Shown in pieces: positions 5,448-52,563 of a stretch of DNA of 64,000 nt. Position numbers and translations under genes: made by a program. Positions within the stretch are counted from its first letter, which is position 1. Every line of letters starts with the position of its first letter. Source of the DNA: a virus; IMG/VR virus record IMGVR_UViG_3300033049_000020, positions 64,001-128,000 of that record; one strand, given 5' to 3'. Under the pieces are notes generated by a model. That model made no database searches. It saw nothing but the letters and a program-made list of their open reading frames with translations, and had not been told where the DNA came from.

Positions 5448-6398
5448 ATGAACAAGAACGTAATAAGAAATAAGGTAAGAGAAGCACTAGGAAGTGTTAA
5501 CTCTATTGGGGTGGCTATCACTAAGCCAAACCAAGAGTTAATTGTTATGAGGGGTGTTTCTGGGGCTGGTAAGTCCACTAGAGCTAGAGAAGTAGTCGGT
5601 GAAGGAGCAATACACTCAACTGATGACCTTTGGGAAGCTACTGGTGACTACTTAGGTGCCTTCAAGAAGATGAACGAGACTGGTGACTGGTCGGCACACG
5701 GTAAGATGCATAACTTAAATTTCACTAACGCGAAAGCGTCAATGGAAACGGGTGTATCTCCAGTTGTTATCGATAATACCAATCTTAAGGCTTCGGATGC
5801 GAAAGCATATGTTAAGGCTGCATTGGAATTGGGTTATTCGGATGTTAATATCAAGGTTGAAGACGTTGGAACGAACGGTTTGACTGTTGAGGTATTGGCT
5901 GAAAGAAATACTCACGGTGTACCATTGGATAAAATTAAGAAGATGGTTAACGTTCATAAGAGCGTTGGAACATTGACAGTTAAGAAGATTATGGAAGCCT
6001 CTGGCGGTAAGAACCGACCAAAGGTTCTATATTCTGCTGTGGTTTTAGATGAAAACTCTAAGACCAAATTGTTGACTGCGTTGAAGCATTTAATCCCAGA
6101 AGGATGGGCACTATTCGCGCATCACATGACAATTGTATTTGCTAAAGGACTACCTGATGACCTTAAAGGGGATTTGGGTGAGACTGTGACGCTTAGAGCG
6201 ACTGAAATCGGTATATCCGATATGGCGATAGCCGTTAAGGTTGATGGATATTTCACAACTAACGATATTCCACACATTACGCTTGCGGCTAACACTGAGG
6301 CAGGTGGGAAGCCATTCATGTCTAATAAAATTACAAATTGGAAACCATTGGGGTCATACGTGAGCCTTACTGGTGTTGTAACTGAGATAAGGTCATGA
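5448..6398 (+). CDS. AAA_33 polynucleotide-kinase-like domain fused to 2H cyclic phosphodiesterase
   Basis: GVSGAGKST P-loop, VIDNTN, RNTHGVP; HHMT and HITL 2H motifs. Confidence 0.8.
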   Translation: MNKNVIRNKVREALGSVNSIGVAITKPNQELIVMRGVSGAGKSTRAREVVGEGAIHSTDDLWEATGDYLGAFKKMNETGDWSAHGKMHNLNFTNAKASMETGVSPVVIDNTNLKASDAKAYVKAALELGYSDVNIKVEDVGTNGLTVEVLAERNTHGVPLDKIKKMVNVHKSVGTLTVKKIMEASGGKNRPKVLYSAVVLDENSKTKLLTALKHLIPEGWALFAHHMTIVFAKGLPDDLKGDLGETVTLRATEIGISDMAIAVKVDGYFTTNDIPHITLAANTEAGGKPFMSNKITNWKPLGSYVSLTGVVTEIRS

Positions 6399-9325: not shown

Positions 9326-9869
9326 ACTATTGTTTTTAGATAAATATAGGGCTAACAACCCAAAAGACGACAGAGACGAACATTTATTTTCGGTTGGGGG
9401 GTTGACAAAACGAAAAGTTTCGCGTAACTTTGTACTATAAATTAATACTATGACATTTAATAATAAAATTAACATACCAAACCCACCCCAGTTTCCTGTG
9501 ATGGAATTTAGCGATAAAGCACTAATATGTATATACGGCAATGTTGACCTAACAGAAGTTAGAAAGTTAAAGCCTTACCATGAGGTGCTGAAAGATATTC
9601 CATGGTTTTTAAGTAATCACGATATTACCAAAGTAAAAGAAATTAATAAGATGCCTTTTATGGAAATATTAGAACGATTAAATAGTATAGTGGAAACTAA
9701 TAACCTACCAAAGAAAATGATACCTAATTTAAAAAAGATTAGTCTTATTCCAAGAAAGAAAATTGATACGAGGACTGGAGATGTCACAGCGCAATGAGTT
9801 TGCTGAAATTTATTATCCGTAAAGACTTGTATAAGTCAATATAATTTCGTATCTTTGTAAAGAAAGAAG

Positions 9870-26923: not shown

Positions 26924-26992
26924 ATGAGAAACTTTAACGACATATTCGAATTCAACTTTGCCGCATTTGCGGAGGAGGATGATTGCATCTAG
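26924..26992 (+). CDS. Leader peptide 2 (Phe/Glu/Asp/Ala-rich): MRNFNDIFEFNFAAFAEEDDCI
   Basis: Short ORF between promoter and terminator, ahead of Phe/Glu/Ala/Asp tRNAs. Confidence 0.8.
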   Translation: MRNFNDIFEFNFAAFAEEDDCI

Positions 26993-44382: not shown

Positions 44383-44862
44383 ATGGAATTTGACGATAAT
44401 GAATTTGATTTCAATGGCTTTCACAATATGAAAGACCTTGGAGAACCCACCAGTGTTGAGAAATTTACCCAAGGTGGAGTAACTTACGAACTTAAAGTAT
44501 GGCAAACAGCTAACGGTGTTATTAAAACCATGGACATCATAGATGTCTCCAGCAACTTTGACGATATAGATTTTAAGGTTGTTAAGGAAGAGGTTTCGTT
44601 TAATAAGGACGATTTAAACTCAGTATTTGATAATGCAGGTGCAATACCAATGGGCTTTTTACGTTTATTAGGTGAAGCGGCACAATTGCATGACAGTCAT
44701 GCAGAACGATTCAGAGGTATGAAACCACCTGAACTCACAATAGAAGAACAAATTGAGGAACTAGAAGAAGACCTTTTAGTTGTAGTAGGCCAAGAAGATT
44801 ACGAAGCTGCTGGTGACATTAAAAAGGAAATTGAAACTCTTAAGTTAAAAACTAATGGTTAA
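44383..44862 (+). CDS. Protein with C-terminal UVR motif
   Basis: VGQEDYEAAGDIKKEI. Confidence 0.6.
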   Translation: MEFDDNEFDFNGFHNMKDLGEPTSVEKFTQGGVTYELKVWQTANGVIKTMDIIDVSSNFDDIDFKVVKEEVSFNKDDLNSVFDNAGAIPMGFLRLLGEAAQLHDSHAERFRGMKPPELTIEEQIEELEEDLLVVVGQEDYEAAGDIKKEIETLKLKTNG

Positions 44863-45642
44863 AAACTAATGGCTAAGAAACCAGTACCATGTATAAAGTG
44901 TGGCGAAACTAAAATAGTAATCGGAGATGCAAACGAAAGCGCCTTCAACTATTTTACGGGTAAATGTACCAATTGTGGTAATGAAGTATTTGGTGATTGT
45001 GGCATATTCCCTGAGATGGATATGATGGTTGGAACGTGGAATGCGTCTAACGACCCAAAGAAGATACTTAAGTCTTATAAGAGTACTATTAAAGATTACG
45101 AGAAGAAGATTGACGAAGTAAAACAAAAGATAGTTGAACTTGAATTCTGGCATACCAAATGATAGATATTAAAGACCTAAGAGTAGGAAATCATATTCAA
45201 CTTCATGAGGTAGATGCTGGTGAAGATAGAAAGGCAACCTTTGATTGGTTGAAGTCAAATCAATTGAAAAGGATATGATAAATGGATAAATTAGAGATAG
45301 GAACAAGAATAATATTCGTAAAGCTTTTAGATAGCCCAGCCACTGGCGACCACCCAGAATTAGTTTATGCTTATAAAGGAGACGAAGGAGAGGTAACTGG
45401 ATACAATAACTTTGAAGGGTATTGGGTTAAAAGAGATAAATGGCCAGCCCCTTTCGGTGCAGAGATAGAAACCGAATTCATCGAGTTAAAATTATAAGAC
45501 TGAAAATCAGTCACTTAAGAGAAATTTTAAAAATAATTGTACGAACACTTGTTTTATTCAAAACTATTTCGTATCTTTGTACTATAATTAAAATAAACAA
45601 AGAAACTTTGCACTTTTATTAAGTGCGCTATATTTAAAAGAA

Positions 45643-45732
45643 ATGAGAAACTTTACTACGACTTATAAAGGGAAACAGTATCCGCAAGGCACAAAGCCAA
45701 GCGCACTGAGATTGTCGTATCTTGTTTTCTAA
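45643..45732 (+). CDS. Leader peptide 3 (Thr/Tyr/Lys/Gly/Gln/Pro-rich): MRNFTTTYKGKQYPQGTKPSALRLSYLVF
   Basis: Short ORF between promoter and terminator, ahead of Pro/Gln/Tyr/Thr/Gly/Lys tRNAs. Confidence 0.8.
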   Translation: MRNFTTTYKGKQYPQGTKPSALRLSYLVF

Positions 45733-45765
45733 CTTTTTAGAATAGAAAAACACATAGATATTGCG

Positions 45766-45798
45766 AAAGCCTCAGTGAGAAATCACCGAGGCTTTTTT
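45766..45798 (+). terminator. Attenuator terminator 3
   Basis: AAAGCCTCAGTGA/TCACCGAGGCTTT plus T run; CTCAGTG can pair alternatively with CACTGAG at 45704. Confidence 0.85.
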
Positions 45799-45864
45799 GT
45801 TGTTTCATATTTTGACAACGTTAAAAATAAAATATGGTTCTTTGACATCGTGGTAATAAATAAA

Positions 45865-45937
45865 TTGAGAAGTAGCTTAAACTACAAAGCTCCATCCGTG
45901 AGGGGTGGGGATGGAGGTGTAAACCCTCCTTCTCAAC
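45865..45937 (+). tRNA. Degenerate tRNA-His(GTG)-like
   Basis: TTGAGAA/TTCTCAA-C, loop CCGTGAG, atypical D and T loops. Confidence 0.4.
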
Positions 45938-45943
45938 TAATAT

Positions 45944-46022
45944 CTAGGTACTTGAGCAGTTGGTTGAACTCGCTTGCTTTGGGAGCAAGAGTATTGCGCT
46001 GGTTCGAATCCAGCTACCTAGA
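45944..46022 (+). tRNA. tRNA-Pro(TGG)
   Basis: CTAGGTA/TACCTAG, loop TTTGGGA. Confidence 0.8.
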
Positions 46023-46033
46023 CTTTTTAATCT

Positions 46034-46127
46034 CTAGTAATGTGCGAGTGGATTAAGCAACTGGCCTTGGAAACCAGTGAGGACTTCAAGAGGTTGTCTT
46101 CCGTAGGTTCGAATCCTACTTACTAGA
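46034..46127 (+). tRNA. tRNA-Pro(TGG), long variable arm
   Basis: CTAGTAA/TTACTAG, loop CTTGGAA. Confidence 0.75.
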
Positions 46128-46248
46128 AATGACTAAGTTAACTACTTCCACGTAGTAGTCATTGGAAACAGGTAATGCTGGCTAAAAGTTAACAAAAAAT
46201 TCTGGTCACTTTCTCTGACTTGAACATATTTATATAGAAATAGATATT

Positions 46249-46596
46249 ATGGGACAATCAGAGAAACAACAATTATGGAAGAAGCAACACTACCAAGAGA
46301 ACAAAGAATTTTATATTAATAAGCAACAAAAGAGGAGGAAAGAAATTAAAGAATTCATTGATTCCTTTAAAACGGAATGTGATGCATGTTATGAATATGA
46401 TAAAGCGTGTTTGGACTTTCATCACCTAGATGGAGCTGATAAAGATGCGGCAGTATCTCAAGCATTGGTAAATAAATGGGGCAATAAAAGGATTATAACA
46501 GAGATAGAAAAATGTGTTGTATTATGTTCTAACTGTCATCGTAAGTTACACGCTTATAATTTAACAGTCGAAGAACTTAAAATTAGAATAGCATAA
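46249..46596 (+). mobile_element. HNH homing endonuclease
   Basis: CDAC..LDFHH..KCVVLCSNCHRKLH; paralog of 27324. Confidence 0.85.
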
Positions 46597-46648
46597 TAAT
46601 ATACGGCAATTAGTTGTCGTATTTGCCGCAGAAAATGCGGCAAATAAT

Positions 46649-46723
46649 CGGGGGGTTCCGCAGATGGATATACGGACCTGCTTTGGAAGCAGGTGTTCGT
46701 GGGTTCGAATCCCACTCTCCCGA
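46649..46723 (+). tRNA. tRNA-Pro(TGG)
   Basis: CGGGGGG/TCTCCCG, loop TTTGGAA. Confidence 0.85.
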
Positions 46724-46726
46724 CTA

Positions 46727-46784
46727 AAGGATGATTACAGCAAACAAAAACAATTTGACTCTTAATCAAAAAAAATTCATCCTG
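46727..46784 (+). ncRNA. CAGCAA-stem element displaying a Lys(CTT) anticodon arm
   Basis: AGGATGA-TTACAGCAA...TTGACTCTTAATCAA...TCATCCTG. Confidence 0.6.
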
Positions 46785-46790
46785 TTATAT

Positions 46791-46876
46791 TGAGCGATAT
46801 GCAAACTGGCAAGCAAACAGGTTTTGAACCTGTCGTGACGAAAGTCCAATTGTAGGTTCGAACCCTACTCGCTCAA
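46791..46876 (+). tRNA. tRNA-Gln(TTG), long variable arm
   Basis: TGAGCGA/TCGCTCA, loop TTTTGAA. Confidence 0.8.
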
Positions 46877-47185
46877 CCGTTTACTTTTCTGTACTTTTTA
46901 AGTACATTATACAATAACAAAAAATGATACTATGGAGAATATAGAGAAATTAATAACTGAATATGAAACCAAATATGAAGAAGGTTTCACCGATGATGAA
47001 ATCAAAAACATATTAGAGAATTATCCCAACATTAACATGGATAAGTTTAATGGTGCAATGATGGGAAATACGTGTGCAATGAGAGATGGGTTACTAGTAA
47101 TGTATCCTTGTGATGTAAGAGCAGCATTGTATTGTGGAATGGAGAATCGAGATTTAAATATACAGGAATGGGATTAAACGTATAT

Positions 47186-47256
47186 TGCCTTGTCGTCTAG
47201 CGGCAGGACCCTCCCCTTTGAAGGGAGTGACGGTGGTTCGAATCCATCCGAGGCAA
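47186..47256 (+). tRNA. tRNA-Gln(TTG)
   Basis: TGCCTTG/CGAGGCA, loop CTTTGAA. Confidence 0.9.
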
Positions 47257-47283
47257 CCCTTAACTTTTTGGTCGCTTTACTCC

Positions 47284-47354
47284 AATTATAAAAATTGTAC
47301 ATGACCTAATTATAAAAATCGTACATGACCTAATTATAGATATTGTACGTCACT
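47284..47354 (+). repeat. 24-bp tandem repeat x3
   Basis: AATTATAAAAAT(T/C)GTACATGACCT twice plus a degenerate third copy. Confidence 0.85.
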
Positions 47355-47374
47355 TTAGAGATGAATAAAAATAT

Positions 47375-47460
47375 CGGTTAGATGGTAAATTGGCTAAATC
47401 AGCAGACTGTAAATCTGTCGTCTTTCGACTATGTAGGTTCGATTCCTACCTGACCGACCA
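47375..47460 (+). tRNA. tRNA-Tyr(GTA), C1:G72, encoded CCA
   Basis: CGGTTAG/CTGACCG-A-CCA, loop CTGTAAA. Confidence 0.85.
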
Positions 47461-47503
47461 AGCTAAGTTCACACTATAATCGCAAAGAAGAGGAAGTGTA
47501 ATT

Positions 47504-47575
47504 GGGAATATGCTCAGGGTAAGTCAGACGGATTGTAACCCCGAACTGCATGGAGTTCGAGTCTCCTCATTCCCA
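47504..47575 (+). tRNA. Atypical tRNA-Tyr(GTA)-like
   Basis: GGGAAT/ATTCCC, T arm, loop TTGTAAC, weak D arm. Confidence 0.5.
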
Positions 47576-47688
47576 CAGCTTAGTTGGTACTATACTCGGT
47601 TGACGAGGAAGTACATTGGTTGAAGTTATAATAAACCACCCTTCTTGAAAGGGAACCCATAAAGATGGGTTATAAATAAAACTTAGAT

Positions 47689-47771
47689 GCTTGATTAGTA
47701 TAACGGAGGGGAAACCCGTATTACCTTGGCTTTGTAACCCAAAAATATCAGTTCGATTCTGATATCAAGCT
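47689..47771 (+). tRNA. tRNA-Thr(TGT) with hairpin in D loop (Tyr register possible)
   Basis: GCTTGAT/ATCAAGC, loop TTTGTAA, insert GGGAAACCC. Confidence 0.6.
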
Positions 47772-47855
47772 CTACATAGTGATTATTTGTGGTTGATGTA
47801 TAACAATTAATCATTATCACTATACTTTTTGATGATAATGCTTATATTTATTATT

Positions 47856-48356
47856 ATGGAAGCTAAAATATGTAAAAATTGTGGTGAGGAAATCAAAGGT
47901 AGAGGCATTAAGTTCTGCTCTCAAACCTGTAATGGTATCTACAACAATAAAGATAGGATTAAGAAGGTAGAACGAGAATGTAATAATTGTGGTGTAGTAA
48001 CAACTAATAAATTTTATTGTACGCCAGAGTGTAATCAAAAACATAAAACTCAATTAAGGTTTGACCAGATTGAGAATGGTGACATTACATTAGATTTTAG
48101 GCAGTATAAAAAATACCTAATTAATAAACATGGTGCTAAATGCATGAGATGTGGTTGGTGTGAGGTTAATCCGACATCTGGTAATGTGCCTATAGAGTTG
48201 GAACATAAAGATGGTGACTCAAGTAATAATTCATTAGGTAATCTTGAATTACTTTGTCCTAACCACCATTCACTAACACCAACGTATAAAGCGTTGAATA
48301 AAGGTAACGGTAGACATAAAAGGATGGAACGTTACAAAGAAGGTAAAAGTTATTAA
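47856..48356 (+). mobile_element. HNH homing endonuclease
   Basis: CMRCG..LEHKDG..NNSLGNLELLCPNHH. Confidence 0.9.
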
Positions 48357-48576
48357 ATTAATAGTTATGGAAGAGACAATAATCGATGGTAGAGAAGCCA
48401 TCATAACAAGAGGAGAGGGGTTAGTGGTCATAGCATCCAAAGGTAAAGGTGGTGCTGTAATATCTGATGAGAATGAAGATGTTGCTAAGGAGAAGTTTTC
48501 TGAAGCGATGAATTTGGCTGAGTCAGTTTACAAACTAATCTTTTTTGAAAAACATGGGAAATTCCCATAAACATAA

Positions 48577-48650
48577 GCGAGTAACGCATAAGTGGTGGTG
48601 CGCCAGCCTTCCAAGCTGGAATAGAGTCGGTTCGATACCGTCTACTCGCT
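48577..48650 (+). tRNA. tRNA-Gly(TCC)
   Basis: GCGAGTA/TACTCGC-T, loop CTTCCAA. Confidence 0.85.
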
Positions 48651-48690
48651 CACGGACATATCGGACTGTCCAATAAAATGTCCGATAAAT

Positions 48691-48761
48691 GCAGTATAGG
48701 TGTTACGGTAGCACATCTGGCTTCCACCCAGAAGGCGAGATTTCGACTATCTCATACTGCA
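48691..48761 (+). tRNA. tRNA-Gly(TCC)
   Basis: GCAGTAT/ATACTGC, loop CTTCCAC. Confidence 0.8.
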
Positions 48762-48906
48762 CAAAAGTAAGTATAGTAGCAATAACACAAAGCGCTTGTG
48801 TTATGTACCTTGCAGTGGGTGACCACAAGGAGAAGTACGTTTCGAGTAATTAACGGGATGGAATTGGGCTAATCAGGCGAATAAACTTCTCTTACTTTTA
48901 ATAATT

Positions 48907-48981
48907 CCATCGGTAGCAAATGTGGATAAGCAACTGGTTTTTACCCAGAATGGAAGACGGGTTCGACTCCCTCTTGGGGCA
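48907..48981 (+). pseudogene. Chimeric tRNA-Lys(TTT) with non-pairing acceptor
   Basis: 5' end identical to 49021 copy, but 3' strand TTGGGGC does not pair with CCATCGG. Confidence 0.55.
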
Positions 48982-49020
48982 CTGGATTAGTTAGCACTAT
49001 ACTCGAAAGGAAGTGCAAAA

Positions 49021-49094
49021 CCATCGGTAGCAAATGTGGATAAGCGTTCGGTTTTTACCCGAAGTAGGAGTGGGTTCGACACCCACCCGATGGA
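49021..49094 (+). tRNA. tRNA-Lys(TTT)
   Basis: CCATCGG/CCGATGG, loop TTTTTAC. Confidence 0.8.
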
Positions 49095-49099
49095 CAAAT

Positions 49100-49171
49100 G
49101 GCTCTATAGTATAAGCGGCAATACACTAGTCTTGTAAACTTGAGTTCTGGCATCGATTGCCAGTAGAGCCT
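49100..49171 (+). tRNA. tRNA-Thr(TGT)
   Basis: GGCTCTA/TAGAGCC, loop CTTGTAA. Confidence 0.75.
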
Positions 49172-49177
49172 CAATAT

Positions 49178-49247
49178 GCGATTATAGTTTAATTCAGAAT
49201 ACCAACCATCTAGGTTGGAGATGTTGGTGGAAACCCAGCTAATCGCT
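49178..49247 (+). pseudogene. Degenerate Gly-like tRNA
   Basis: GCGATTA/TAATCGC-T acceptor; loop CATCTAG lacks U33; T loop atypical. Confidence 0.45.
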
Positions 49248-49252
49248 CATAT

Positions 49253-49340
49253 GACTCCATAGTTCAATTGGTTATCCCGAAAGGGTGTAGAATAGTTGCC
49301 TTTTAAGCTTCGGATTTGGGTTCGAGTCCCAATGGAGTCA
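49253..49340 (+). tRNA. tRNA-Lys(TTT) with hairpin in D loop
   Basis: GACTCCA/TGGAGTC, loop CTTTTAA, insert ATCCCGAAAGGGT. Confidence 0.7.
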
Positions 49341-49453
49341 CACAAGTTTGTACGTTTGTGCTGTAAAACGTACTTATCATGATGAATTCATGTGCAACTG
49401 GGTAACAGGTTAACCACTCTCCTGTCCTAATGTTAAAGACTAAAAGTGGATAT

Positions 49454-49528
49454 GCGAATGTAGCTCAGTTGGTTTAGAGCGTCTGGTTGCCAATCAGAAG
49501 GTCGTGAGTTCGAATCTCATCTTTCGCT
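49454..49528 (+). tRNA. tRNA-Gly(GCC)
   Basis: Canonical D/T arms, loop TTGCCAA. Confidence 0.9.
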
Positions 49529-49567
49529 CTCTTGACTTTTTGGTACTTCCCACCTCCCCAACAATAA

Positions 49568-49641
49568 CCATCGATAGCAAATGCGGATATGCACTTGACT
49601 CTTAATCAAGACGGGAAAGGGTTCGACTCCCTTACGGTGGA
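49568..49641 (+). tRNA. tRNA-Lys(CTT)
   Basis: CCATCG/CGGTGG, loop CTCTTAA. Confidence 0.8.
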
Positions 49642-49664
49642 CTAACATTAAAATCAACATTATT

Positions 49665-50339
49665 ATGGAAGATGAATCGTATTACGTCTCTGACGTAACA
49701 GGTAATAAGTACCCCAAAGATGAGTATCATAATCATGGTTGGGGTGGGATTAAGTACAATTTTAAGGATTTACCTCATGATGAATATCCTTATTCAGTAG
49801 TAGAACCAAACATCAAAAGCGATGAGGAGTTACTGGTTGAATATATGCGAGAGGTCTTTAGTATCCTTAAGGAACGAGAAGTGCCGAGTAAGTATGATAA
49901 AGAGTATGATGCTAGACTATACAAAGCTCTGGCTAATTGGAACATTCACGTAATACCTCACGCCTTTAAGGAGCGTGGATTGAGAGAAGAGGATGTTGCG
50001 ATAATATTACCGTCAGCACGATTAAGAGAGCTGGCAGAATACGTTGAATTCACAAATTTAATTGATTTTACCACGGGAAAGAAGGTATTGGGCGAAATGC
50101 TTGATAGTAATGAAGACGCTTGGACGGTAATGGAAAGAATGGATTTATTATACAAGGCCGAAGGTTCGGCAGTAGAAGATGCTGTTGACGCAGTATTAGC
50201 TAAATATCCAGATAAAATTATTGCCTACAAAGGTGGAAAGAAAGGTTTATTTGGAATGTTTGTTGGTGAGATAATGCGAAGCATTAAGGGTGTTAATGGG
50301 AAAGAAGTAAGTGATATATTAACCGAAAAATTAAAATAA
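49665..50339 (+). CDS. GatB C-terminal/YqeY domain protein
   Basis: VDAVLAKYPDKIIAYKGGKKGLFGMFVGEIMR..KG. Confidence 0.75.
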   Translation: MEDESYYVSDVTGNKYPKDEYHNHGWGGIKYNFKDLPHDEYPYSVVEPNIKSDEELLVEYMREVFSILKEREVPSKYDKEYDARLYKALANWNIHVIPHAFKERGLREEDVAIILPSARLRELAEYVEFTNLIDFTTGKKVLGEMLDSNEDAWTVMERMDLLYKAEGSAVEDAVDAVLAKYPDKIIAYKGGKKGLFGMFVGEIMRSIKGVNGKEVSDILTEKLK

Positions 50340-50620
50340 TGATGGAACGAATAGATTTTCCAACATCTGGAATGCACATCAACGACTATTTAACGTCAGT
50401 TGAACGTGAAGTATCTGAATACTACTCAGATTCTATTCGTAGAATTTGGGTAAGCTATGCTAGAATCAGCAAAGGACGTGGAGAGTATAGGCTACAAGTG
50501 ACTGTATTTCCAAATGGAGTTGACTCCCCATATAGGATTATCACTGGAGAGGTTGATACTCAATTGACTCTAGAGGGAGTCTGCGAAATGATTGATGGAG
50601 CACTTAAGGCCATCAATAAT

Positions 50621-50692
50621 GCCTCCATGGTATAAAGGTTATTACGTGCCCTTGGTAAGGGTAAAATTCCGATTCAATTTCGGGTGGAGGCT
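50621..50692 (+). tRNA. tRNA-Thr(GGT)
   Basis: GCCTCCA/TGGAGGC, loop TTGGTAA. Confidence 0.85.
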
Positions 50693-52563
50693 CCCTGAAC
50701 TTTTTATTTGTACATGTCAAATATTATGCGTATCTTTGTCTTATGGATAAGTATGTAAAGGTAAAGTTCAATGGTAAGGTAACACCTTATTTACTTTACG
50801 TAGATGAGAATTACGTATGGACAGATGAGCAGGTAAAGTCGGAAAACGCTAAAACAGTTGAATTAGCTAAAATGGCTTTCCTTGACCACGGAGTACCATT
50901 AATACCTTTGGATTCAATATCAGATGTCTTGAGCCTTAAAGCGGCCTACACAACACCAACCAAAGATGTAGTATTACTCATTTATGAGGGTGGAAATTTC
51001 ATGACACTATTACCATCTATGGAGATAGTAAAGGAACAATACTCTGAGTATTACCCAATAGAAGAAGGTTTTGCGGTTATATGTGAAAATGACCCATTCG
51101 ATAAAAACGTGAGTATGACGGACTACATATTTGAGAGGATGTGCAAGGATAACTCAATAGTTGGGTATCATTATCTGTTCAGCTTCAGGAATAGATTAGA
51201 ATCGGAATTGATTAAAGCATTTTCTGAAGCACCAGCGATACTATTCAATAGTTCGTATGTGGATGTGGATTGGTGGGAATTAATGCTGAGGTGTATAATA
51301 AAGTCTAAAACCAAGGCTAAAGTCATCGGTAAGAAAAAAACTCACCCAAAAATGGTGGAGAGACAGGATAAGTATCTTGAATTAGCCAATAAGTTTGGGG
51401 TTGAAATATCGATGATGCTATAATTTGCATATGTCAAATATTTTATGTATCTTTGTTCTATTATGAGTAAAGAAGACAAATTCAATCCAGAGAGACTATT
51501 ACGTAGTCTAGGCTTCACTAGTGTAAGTAAGGATGAAGACGGAAATTCTAAACCTAGCGATTGGGGTAGTAGTCGTTTCTACAATCATCCTCTAGGTTAT
51601 CGTGTAGATATCACTTACGATGACAATACGACTAGGAAGCCTGATAATGTCCTTTACTACATGTTCAGGGATAACCAACATAGAGAAGTGGTTGAGGATT
51701 ACAATAAATCATACGGACAGCATAGAACGTCAACGGAGTTTGCTAACGCTCTACACGACTTCAATAAAGAACTCAAAGAATTTTACAAAGACAAATTAGA
51801 GGCTAATCCACTATTAAAAAAGTATGTAACAACCTTCGAATACGTAGGCTGCTCAGGATTTCACCCTTCTCACTTTGGAACAAGGACTAAAGGTCATTTA
51901 AGTATGGACTGGTGGTTAGAAACATTCAAAAACTTAGAGTGGGATGTGGACATGATGAAAGAAGCAAAAGAAAAATCAGAATAAATTTGCATAGCTCGAA
52001 TATTTTTCGTATCTTTGTAATCTAATCAAAACAAAAAACGTATGATTCTAATTTTTATATTACTAGCATTAATAATACTCGGTGGGTATATAATGAACAC
52101 TAGTTATAATTATGAGCCTCTTGGCTTTATGATGGTAGCTATATTCAGCATTTGGCTACTTATTCATACTATTATGTGGGGGTTAACTACTTACGATTAT
52201 TATATGTTTGTAGTTAAGAGAAATGCATTTGAGCAAACGTTGAGTGACTCTAGAGAAAACGGCAATGAATATGAGACTGCTGCAATTGTTAAAGAGGTGG
52301 CTGAGTGGAATATTAGTTTGGCCACTAGACAGTACGACAATAAGACTTTCTATCTAGACCAATATCATGACGATAGAATAGAAGATTTAAAGCCAATCAA
52401 ATAAATGGCCTCTAAGAATAAGTGGAATAAGATGAAGAACGCTCGTTCTAATCGTGGATTTGCACTTAAAGAGTCTAAATTAAAAATGAAGCGAAGACTA
52501 TTCTTCAACGCCTCAACAAGAAAAAATTTAAACAACCCCAAAAACTGGGATTAATTAATAACA

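Follow-up and report, generated by a model that had tools for sequence, protein, structure and literature searches.

A putative multivalent leader-peptide attenuator preceding a tRNA operon of a presumed marine Bacteroidota phage

A short leader ORF upstream of a phage tRNA operon contains 15 consecutive codons taken exclusively from the six amino acids of the canonical tRNAs encoded in that operon. The ORF belongs to a unit comprising, in order, a Bacteroidota-type promoter, the leader ORF, alternative hairpins, a U-tailed terminator, a putative rrn-type boxA and the tRNA genes. Judging from sequence features, their statistics, conservation in related contigs and alternative RNA pairings, this unit probably functions as a ribosome-mediated leader-peptide attenuator of the multivalent trp/ilv style that gates the tRNA operon (estimated probability about 0.7).

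The analysed stretch of DNA, referred to below as the window, is 64,000 nucleotides long and corresponds to bases 64001-128000 of virus record IMGVR_UViG_3300033049_000020, the total length of which is 152,464 bp. Positions are those of the window unless genome positions, i.e., those of the whole record, are indicated. The record has a G+C content of 36%, and nearly every gene is located on the + strand. ARAGORN predicts 43 tRNA genes in the whole record, clustered by amino acid. The Bacteroidota sigma-A promoter has a -33/-7 consensus with the -7 box at -12 to -5, and Flavobacteria feature TAnnTTTG promoters as well as leader-peptide attenuation of amino-acid operons (PMC9723704). On the + strand of the window, 67 such -7 boxes were found against 32 expected, frequently directly 5' of genes, and the gene starts of the phage are A/U-rich and carry no Shine-Dalgarno sequence. 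Both features point to a Bacteroidota bacterium as the host. The related contigs originate in Tara and JGI marine samples, and no cultured relatives were present in the phage collection searched. On these grounds, the virus is a marine phage of Bacteroidota.

The promoter of the unit is of the Bacteroidota sigma-A type and occupies positions 45549..45579, with the -33 TTG at 45549-45551 separated by 20 nt from the -7 box TATCTTTG at 45572-45579; this places the transcription start at approximately 45584. The promoter, leader, RNA structures, boxA-like element and operon all lie on the + strand. A second -7 box accompanied by a -33 TTG is absent from positions 45580-50730, and the next consensus promoter is located at 50731, just past the last tRNA gene. 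Hence, a single consensus promoter serves the whole operon (45944-50694). A search of viral contigs with the exact promoter 20-mer returned only generic Bacteroidota promoters preceding ordinary genes.

The leader ORF (45643..45732) consists of 29 codons and a TAA stop. Its ATG is located 60 nt past the inferred transcription start in a context typical of the phage genes, A/U-rich and without a Shine-Dalgarno sequence. Codons 5-19, TTTYKGKQYPQGTKP, form the regulatory run (45655..45699), in which only Thr, Tyr, Lys, Gly, Gln and Pro are used, so that 15/15 codons fall within the six isotypes of the downstream canonical tRNAs. The ORF, its peptide and this run, including both Lys codons (AAA, AAA, AAG) and both Gln codons (CAG, CAA), were reproduced as given in the preliminary description of the locus. 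In the six-frame translation of the 152,464-bp genome, no other run drawn from these six residues is as long, the runner-up being 11 residues long, and the counts of such runs drop approximately 3.5-fold with each additional residue. At a set frequency of 0.315, taken from the amino-acid usage in the long ORFs of the phage itself, the probability that a random 28-mer contains a 15-residue run is 2.9e-7, and 3.5e-4 such runs are expected across the 1,206 small ATG ORFs of the genome. The residue set was dictated beforehand by the downstream tRNAs, with no post hoc choice. The composition of the leader, for which a comparison with chance had been suggested, is thus non-random. Each of the nine anticodon species of the operon also has a cognate codon in the run; full coverage of this kind has a chance probability of about 0.30 and is not significant.

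The gated operon (45944..50694) contains 13 canonical tRNA genes, three degenerate tRNA-like genes, two HNH genes, a gene for a GatB/YqeY-domain protein and small ORFs. The canonical tRNAs, predicted by ARAGORN with default settings, comprise three for Pro, two for Gln, one for Tyr, three for Gly, two for Lys and two for Thr. The three non-canonical genes inside the operon, found with Rfam, are a Thr- or Gln-like gene with a D-loop insert (47689-47771), a Lys-UUU-like gene with a D-loop insert and stem mismatches (49253-49340) and an Arg-UCU-like gene with A33 and a degenerate T-loop (49178-49247); the D-loop inserts of the former two are 14-17 nt long. The Arg-UCU-like gene is the sole member of the operon outside the leader's set. 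The earlier statement that the leader uses exactly the set of the intact tRNAs is therefore to be restricted to the 13 canonical tRNAs. The HNH homing-endonuclease genes (46249-46596 and 47829-48356) are scattered between the tRNA genes. The 224-aa GatB/YqeY-domain protein (PF02637; 49665-50339), also encoded within the operon and kept in the relatives, may act on tRNA.

A further tRNA-like cloverleaf of non-canonical type (45866..45939) is located between the boxA-like element and the first tRNA gene and is also present in L012, L015 (twice) and L019. Eight of its 22 pairs show compensatory changes; its T-loop is non-canonical and its anticodon arm irregular, and no match to an Rfam family was reported there. 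In addition, copies of tRNA-Pro(UGG) and tRNA-Gln(UUG) with 15-23-nt inserts in the variable arm were observed (46033-46128 and 46791-46878), as well as in the relatives (L015:5606-5700 and 5706-5793; L022:9228-9322 and 9371-9460). Their preservation in three lineages beside normal copies makes pseudogene decay unlikely, and they are probably not decayed pseudogenes.

Several other RNA-related features were noted in the genome. A full-length tmRNA gene is located at genome 44751-45126 (L006:4751-5126; Rfam RF00023, 90.7 bits), with a tag peptide predicted by ARAGORN. Two neighbouring tRNAs with the anticodon CUA, which would read TAG, lie at genome 47335-47483 (L006:7335-7483) and share a leaderless promoter with one tRNA-Cys, which may point to suppression or recoding of stop codons. 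The second leader of the genome (window 26924-26992) terminates with TAG. A 484-aa protein (L005:17834-19288) matches phrog_850 ('RNA-binding protein') with E = 2e-148, and a protein encoded at window 5448-6398 resembles polynucleotide kinase or RNA ligase. By these resemblances, the two proteins may constitute an RNA-repair set.

The promoter, small ORF, terminator and tRNA array are arranged in the same way in four copies in the genome. The 20-mer carrying the -7 box recurs without change at window 16534 and 26880 and with two mismatches at genome 55978. The ORFs of the sister units comprise 22-31 codons and are followed by a terminator and then by a tRNA array. The fractions of leader residues belonging to the isotype set of their own operon are 0.46, 0.40, 0.67 and 0.57, with all other pairings of leader and set at or below 0.23. 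Strict runs for the three sister sets are not the longest in the genome, and the comparison was therefore based on stop-free 12-residue windows of the six-frame genome translation (n = 151,425). The maximum own-set content of such a window, reached by 3-5 of the 151,425, is tied by the leaders of the Cys/Val/Leu, Phe/Glu/Asp/Ala and Pro/Gln/Tyr/Gly/Lys/Thr operons. The maximal windows fall inside the respective leader in 1/5 cases for Cys/Val/Leu, 2/3 for Phe/Glu/Asp/Ala and 4/4 for Pro/Gln/Tyr/Gly/Lys/Thr; the leader of the His/Ser/Arg/Met/Asn/Trp operon belongs to the top 0.15% of windows. This fourth leader unit is located at genome 55978-56195 (window -8022 to -7805); it is rich in Met, Ser, Ile, His, Asn, Trp and Arg, and its array contains His, Trp, Ser, Asn, Arg and Met tRNAs. 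The four leaders may jointly cover all 20 amino acids. A tRNA-Ile(GAU) was not found, and the coverage of Ile would rest on CAU tRNAs.

The GatB/YqeY-domain protein was used to reach related marine contigs. The unit was found in four distinct ones (L019, L012, L015 and L022), with the identity of the GatB/YqeY protein down to 44% (L022). In all four, the ORF is retained with 13-15 consecutive codons from the set and an unchanged stop position, and the tRNA arrays contain the same six isotypes; the Tyr tRNA of L022 was not found before the contig end, though the Tyr codons of its leader are kept. Variable sites in the core of the ORF fall at the third codon position in 7/8 cases (binomial p ~0.003, calculated by hand), and the eighth, Lys to Gln, still remains within the set. 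In L015, two codons are altered and the frame is preserved. The order of residues in the peptide is conserved beyond composition, which could reflect the hairpin at 45683-45703 described below or a function of the peptide itself. Leader codons 14 and 16 are invariant across the orthologues, and codon 10 is always GGR, both forms of which are read by one tRNA. The part of the run at 45670-45699 includes codons that are rare in the phage (GGG, GGC, CCG and ACG, accounting for 12%, 7%, 8% and 13% of their families, respectively). Such invariant or rare codons may be due to the same hairpin or to selection for slow codons. Near the tRNA operon, the relatives also encode a ribosomal protein L12 homologue and glutamine-synthetase-like and NADAR proteins (L012:12360-12728, L015:11958-12341; L012:3941-4987).

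A more distant, independent instance was found in a groundwater contig, L025, in which the GatB/YqeY protein is 41% identical and the promoter is of the same type. Its leader ORF has 34 codons, 15 of which form an unbroken run, LRQLQLLQVVLFVFR, of Leu, Arg, Gln, Val and Phe only; a terminator and then Leu, Phe, Val, Arg and Gln tRNAs follow. This run is the longest from its own set within the locus, the next being 11. Gln is grouped with Leu/Val/Phe/Arg in L025 and with Pro/Tyr/Gly/Lys/Thr in the phage under study, and each leader includes Gln. The placement of Gln thus shifts in the array and the leader alike, indicating that leader content tracks tRNA content across phages. The Gln tRNAs of L025 sit behind an additional promoter-like site. 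Among viral contigs, neither a degenerate DNA pattern for the leader peptide nor the GatB/YqeY protein or its alignment yielded any match or relative, and a structural-protein query returned short fragments only.

The RNA of the unit can form several hairpins. A hairpin in the 5'-UTR (45609..45627, -7.5 kcal/mol) is kept in close relatives. Region 1 (UACGAC, 45657..45662), located within the run, pairs with GUCGUA at 45714-45719 to give a protector (1:2) in the full-length minimum-energy fold. Both protector hexamers are invariant in five sequences, and the pairing recurs in the folds of L019, L012, L015 and L022. A small hairpin inside the ORF (45683..45703, -7.4 kcal/mol), just 5' of the antiterminator arm, is a possible RNA polymerase pause hairpin according to the predicted fold. 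The antiterminator hairpin (2:3) extends over 45704..45777 (-19.3 kcal/mol). It is closed by the helix CACUGAG/CUCAGUG (45704-45710 with 45771-45777), which consumes the 5' arm of the terminator; in its inner stem (45712-45766), TGTTTTCTA pairs with TAGAAAAACA, and the TAA stop (45730-45732) adjoins the apical loop. Both of these pairings and the stop near the apex had been proposed earlier and are present. The intrinsic terminator (3:4; 45765..45798, -17.7 kcal/mol) has a 13-pair stem at 45765-45796 and a GAAA loop, with a U tract (U6) at 45793-45798, after which comes GUUGUUU.

The full-length RNA folds into the protector plus the terminator (z-score -4.0). When the RNA is cut before the 3' arm of the terminator, the antiterminator becomes the minimum-energy fold in the window sequence and in L019, L012 and L022. 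The terminator state is 7-9 kcal/mol more stable than the antiterminator state at equilibrium, so the switch would have to be kinetic; equilibrium folds with the ribosome footprint masked retained the terminator every time. In L022, the terminator arm differs (GCCCAGAGG..., GCCCAG...), and the leader bears a matching CUGGGC at the corresponding place; both states were seen in its folds, with the stop near the apex. The antiterminator arm lies 3' of the regulatory codons in 4/4 units of the genome, with the stop inside or just before the hairpin: it adjoins the apex in units B and D, as well as in L022, and the arm of unit C starts 3 nt past the stop.

For this unit alone, 5.2% of dinucleotide shuffles contained a stretch of 7 nt or more perfectly complementary to the terminator arm (p = 0.052, marginally above chance), as did 5.4%, 24% and 0.1% of shuffles for the three sister units. 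The longest-complement p values of the four units, combined by hand using Fisher's method, give approximately 4e-4. In a shuffle test based on minimum-energy folds, the real leader was not separable from shuffles, about half of which sequestered the arm equally, and this test of arm sequestration was dropped as uninformative. The closing helix is paired in 35/35 cells of the five-sequence alignment, with one pair occurring as A-U, G-U and G-C; covariation in the five sequences showed no excess over shuffles (72/500). Taken as a set of predictions, these structures provide moderate evidence for a hairpin switch.

Downstream of the terminator, a boxA-like element of 17 nt, GTTCTTTGACATCGTGG, occupies positions 45837..45853. 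It is invariant in five relatives, even where the leader has diverged. A shorter core of the element, GTTCTTTGA, occurs eight times on the + strand of the genome, in 7/8 cases just 5' of RNA genes. At two sites (window 40310 and genome 48140), the core is located directly 3' of a promoter -7 box, which indicates that the element is transcribed. The form GTTCTTTGA(A/C)A precedes every RNA operon of the phage (window 16737, 27163, 27911, 40310 and 45837; genome 48140 and 56997). The full 17-mer was also found in three Bacteroidota rrn spacers (L164, L175 and L198), 68-104 nt 5' of the start of the 23S rRNA; the majority of 17-mer matches in genome contigs look random, and only the 23S-proximal ones are informative. 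A 16S 5' end downstream of the motif was not found in the genome contigs. The 17-mer reads as a putative rrn-type boxA, which would make it a candidate site for NusB/NusE.

From these features, we infer translation of the ORF, kinetic competition of the hairpins, the polarity of the switch and its response to tRNA supply, which can be combined into the following mechanism. Host RNA polymerase would initiate at the Bacteroidota-type promoter, and a ribosome would translate the 29-codon leader. If cognate tRNAs were scarce, uncharged or damaged, any of the 15 codons would be read slowly and the ribosome would stall on 45655-45699. With its A site at codons 5 to ~17, the stalled ribosome would mask region 1, allowing 45704-45777 to fold as the antiterminator, which would capture the 5' arm of the terminator and permit read-through past boxA into the Pro-Gln-Tyr-Gly-Lys-Thr tRNA genes. 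With fast decoding, the ribosome at the stop would cover approximately 45715-45745 and block the antiterminator; the terminator would form and the transcript would end at about 45798. Without translation, region 1 would pair with region 2 and the terminator would form as well. The net effect would be negative feedback, in which a shortage of decoding capacity turns on the operon supplying that capacity. The element would respond equally to any such shortage, and, given the stability of tRNA, the feedback may be slow within one infection cycle. The leader stop is situated about 35 nt short of the terminator, which makes a direct block of the pyrBI type unlikely.

The leader might also sense the same codons and act on another output, with the stalled ribosome altering RNA processing, stability or access of Rho, or with the polarity reversed. 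The hairpin-competition evidence is weak for this unit alone and the terminator is favoured at equilibrium, both of which suit such an arrangement. It is nevertheless unlikely in view of the placement of the stop at the antiterminator apex (B, D and L022) or 3 nt before the arm (C), the location of the arm 3' of the regulatory codons in all four units and the combined longest-complement p of approximately 4e-4.

Alternatively, the promoter, ORF and terminator could form an independent small gene yielding a micropeptide or an RNA of about 215 nt, with the tRNAs transcribed constitutively from another signal. The conserved order of the peptide would suit a gene of this kind. A candidate signal is GTTCTTTG, which departs from TAnnTTTG only at the TA positions (G-T for T-A) and has a TTTG upstream at a spacing like that of a promoter, so that GTTCTTTGA could be a weak variant of the -7 box. 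However, the transcription of GTTCTTTGA at window 40310 and genome 48140 and the occurrence of the 17-mer in rrn spacers fit boxA better than a promoter, and four peptides mirroring their own tRNA sets, together with L025, would be left unexplained, which renders an independent gene very unlikely. An unrelated small ORF lying by chance upstream of a tRNA array has nothing in its favour except the abundance of small ORFs, and its probability is negligible given the 3.5e-4 runs expected genome-wide, the presence of the pattern in four units of this genome as well as in L025, and the third-position variation of the conserved ORF.

The leader-peptide attenuator thus remains the preferred reading, and a link with host defence was also considered. 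In E. coli systems, AriB cleaves tRNA-Lys (PMC11464382), PtuAB degrades tRNA-Tyr and phage tRNA-Lys counters PrrC170 (PMC11555353); the preliminary description was correct in naming tRNA-Lys and tRNA-Tyr as nuclease targets for these E. coli systems (PMC11464382, PMC11555353). It is conceivable, if doubtful, that the four codon-addressed sensors constitute an inducible counter-defence circuit and not just a homeostatic one, each making replacement tRNAs once the corresponding host tRNAs have been depleted or cleaved, for instance by anticodon nucleases. The attenuator proposed in that description is supported by the leader composition, the layout, the four units, the conserved ORF, the exclusive pairings and L025; its defence-nuclease part draws no such support from them.

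In a full-text literature search, no paper reporting control of tRNA genes by a leader peptide was found, whether for phages or for cells, and, as far as the literature found goes, what is new here is probably the application of a known type of attenuation to tRNA genes. If true, this would be the first case found of tRNA genes regulated by the decoding speed of their own codons. The purpose and control of phage tRNAs are debated, the proposals including codon-usage matching, replacement of degraded tRNAs and escape from anticodon nucleases; what the phage senses could be read directly from the codons of the leader. Classical attenuation would thereby reach RNA genes, phages and Bacteroidota, with six amino acids sensed simultaneously, and the unit would provide a small, programmable device for sensing how fast particular codons are translated.

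Among known systems, the ilvGMEDA leader senses Ile, Val and Leu, and thrL senses Thr and Ile. The phage unit resembles both in having a promoter-proximal short ORF with codons for several amino acids, 1:2, 2:3 and 3:4 hairpins, an intrinsic terminator and a stop that would let an unstalled ribosome block the antiterminator. Unlike them, it would control tRNAs rather than biosynthetic enzymes and addresses six amino acids in an unbroken series of 15 codons; it is also phage-borne, belongs to a Bacteroidota setting, carries no Shine-Dalgarno sequence and has no Rfam leader match. The Rfam leader families (His, Thr, Trp, Leu leaders and others) gave no match up to E = 1 in 44500-51500. With trpL and hisL, the unit shares the logic and the geometry, ~65 nt separating the leader stop from the U tract. 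The trpL terminator is likewise more stable than its antiterminator, the choice between them being kinetic. These leaders differ from the phage unit in that they sense a single amino acid, are chromosomal and have a biosynthetic pathway as their output. In the pheST attenuator, the pheM leader precedes the genes for phenylalanyl-tRNA synthetase; it is also a leader-peptide attenuator acting on a component of the decoding machinery, but it controls a synthetase, senses one amino acid and belongs to a cellular genome.

T-box riboswitches similarly tie a terminator/antiterminator switch in translation-related genes to tRNA status. They bind uncharged tRNA directly and require no translation, whereas the phage unit has a candidate translated ORF instead; no covariance-model match to the T-box (RF00230) was found in 44500-51500. 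The tRNA-rich region of phage T5 is comparable in that phage tRNAs replace host tRNAs lost to defence nucleases (PMC11555353, PMC11464382). In T5, the control reported for this region is a strong promoter (PMC11555353) and, in contrast to the unit proposed here, no leader-peptide gating is described. Finally, the 17-mer is identical to the motif located 5' of 23S in Bacteroidota rrn spacers, which relates the unit to rrn boxA antitermination; unlike the rrn copies, the phage copy is situated past a putative conditional terminator and heads a phage tRNA operon.
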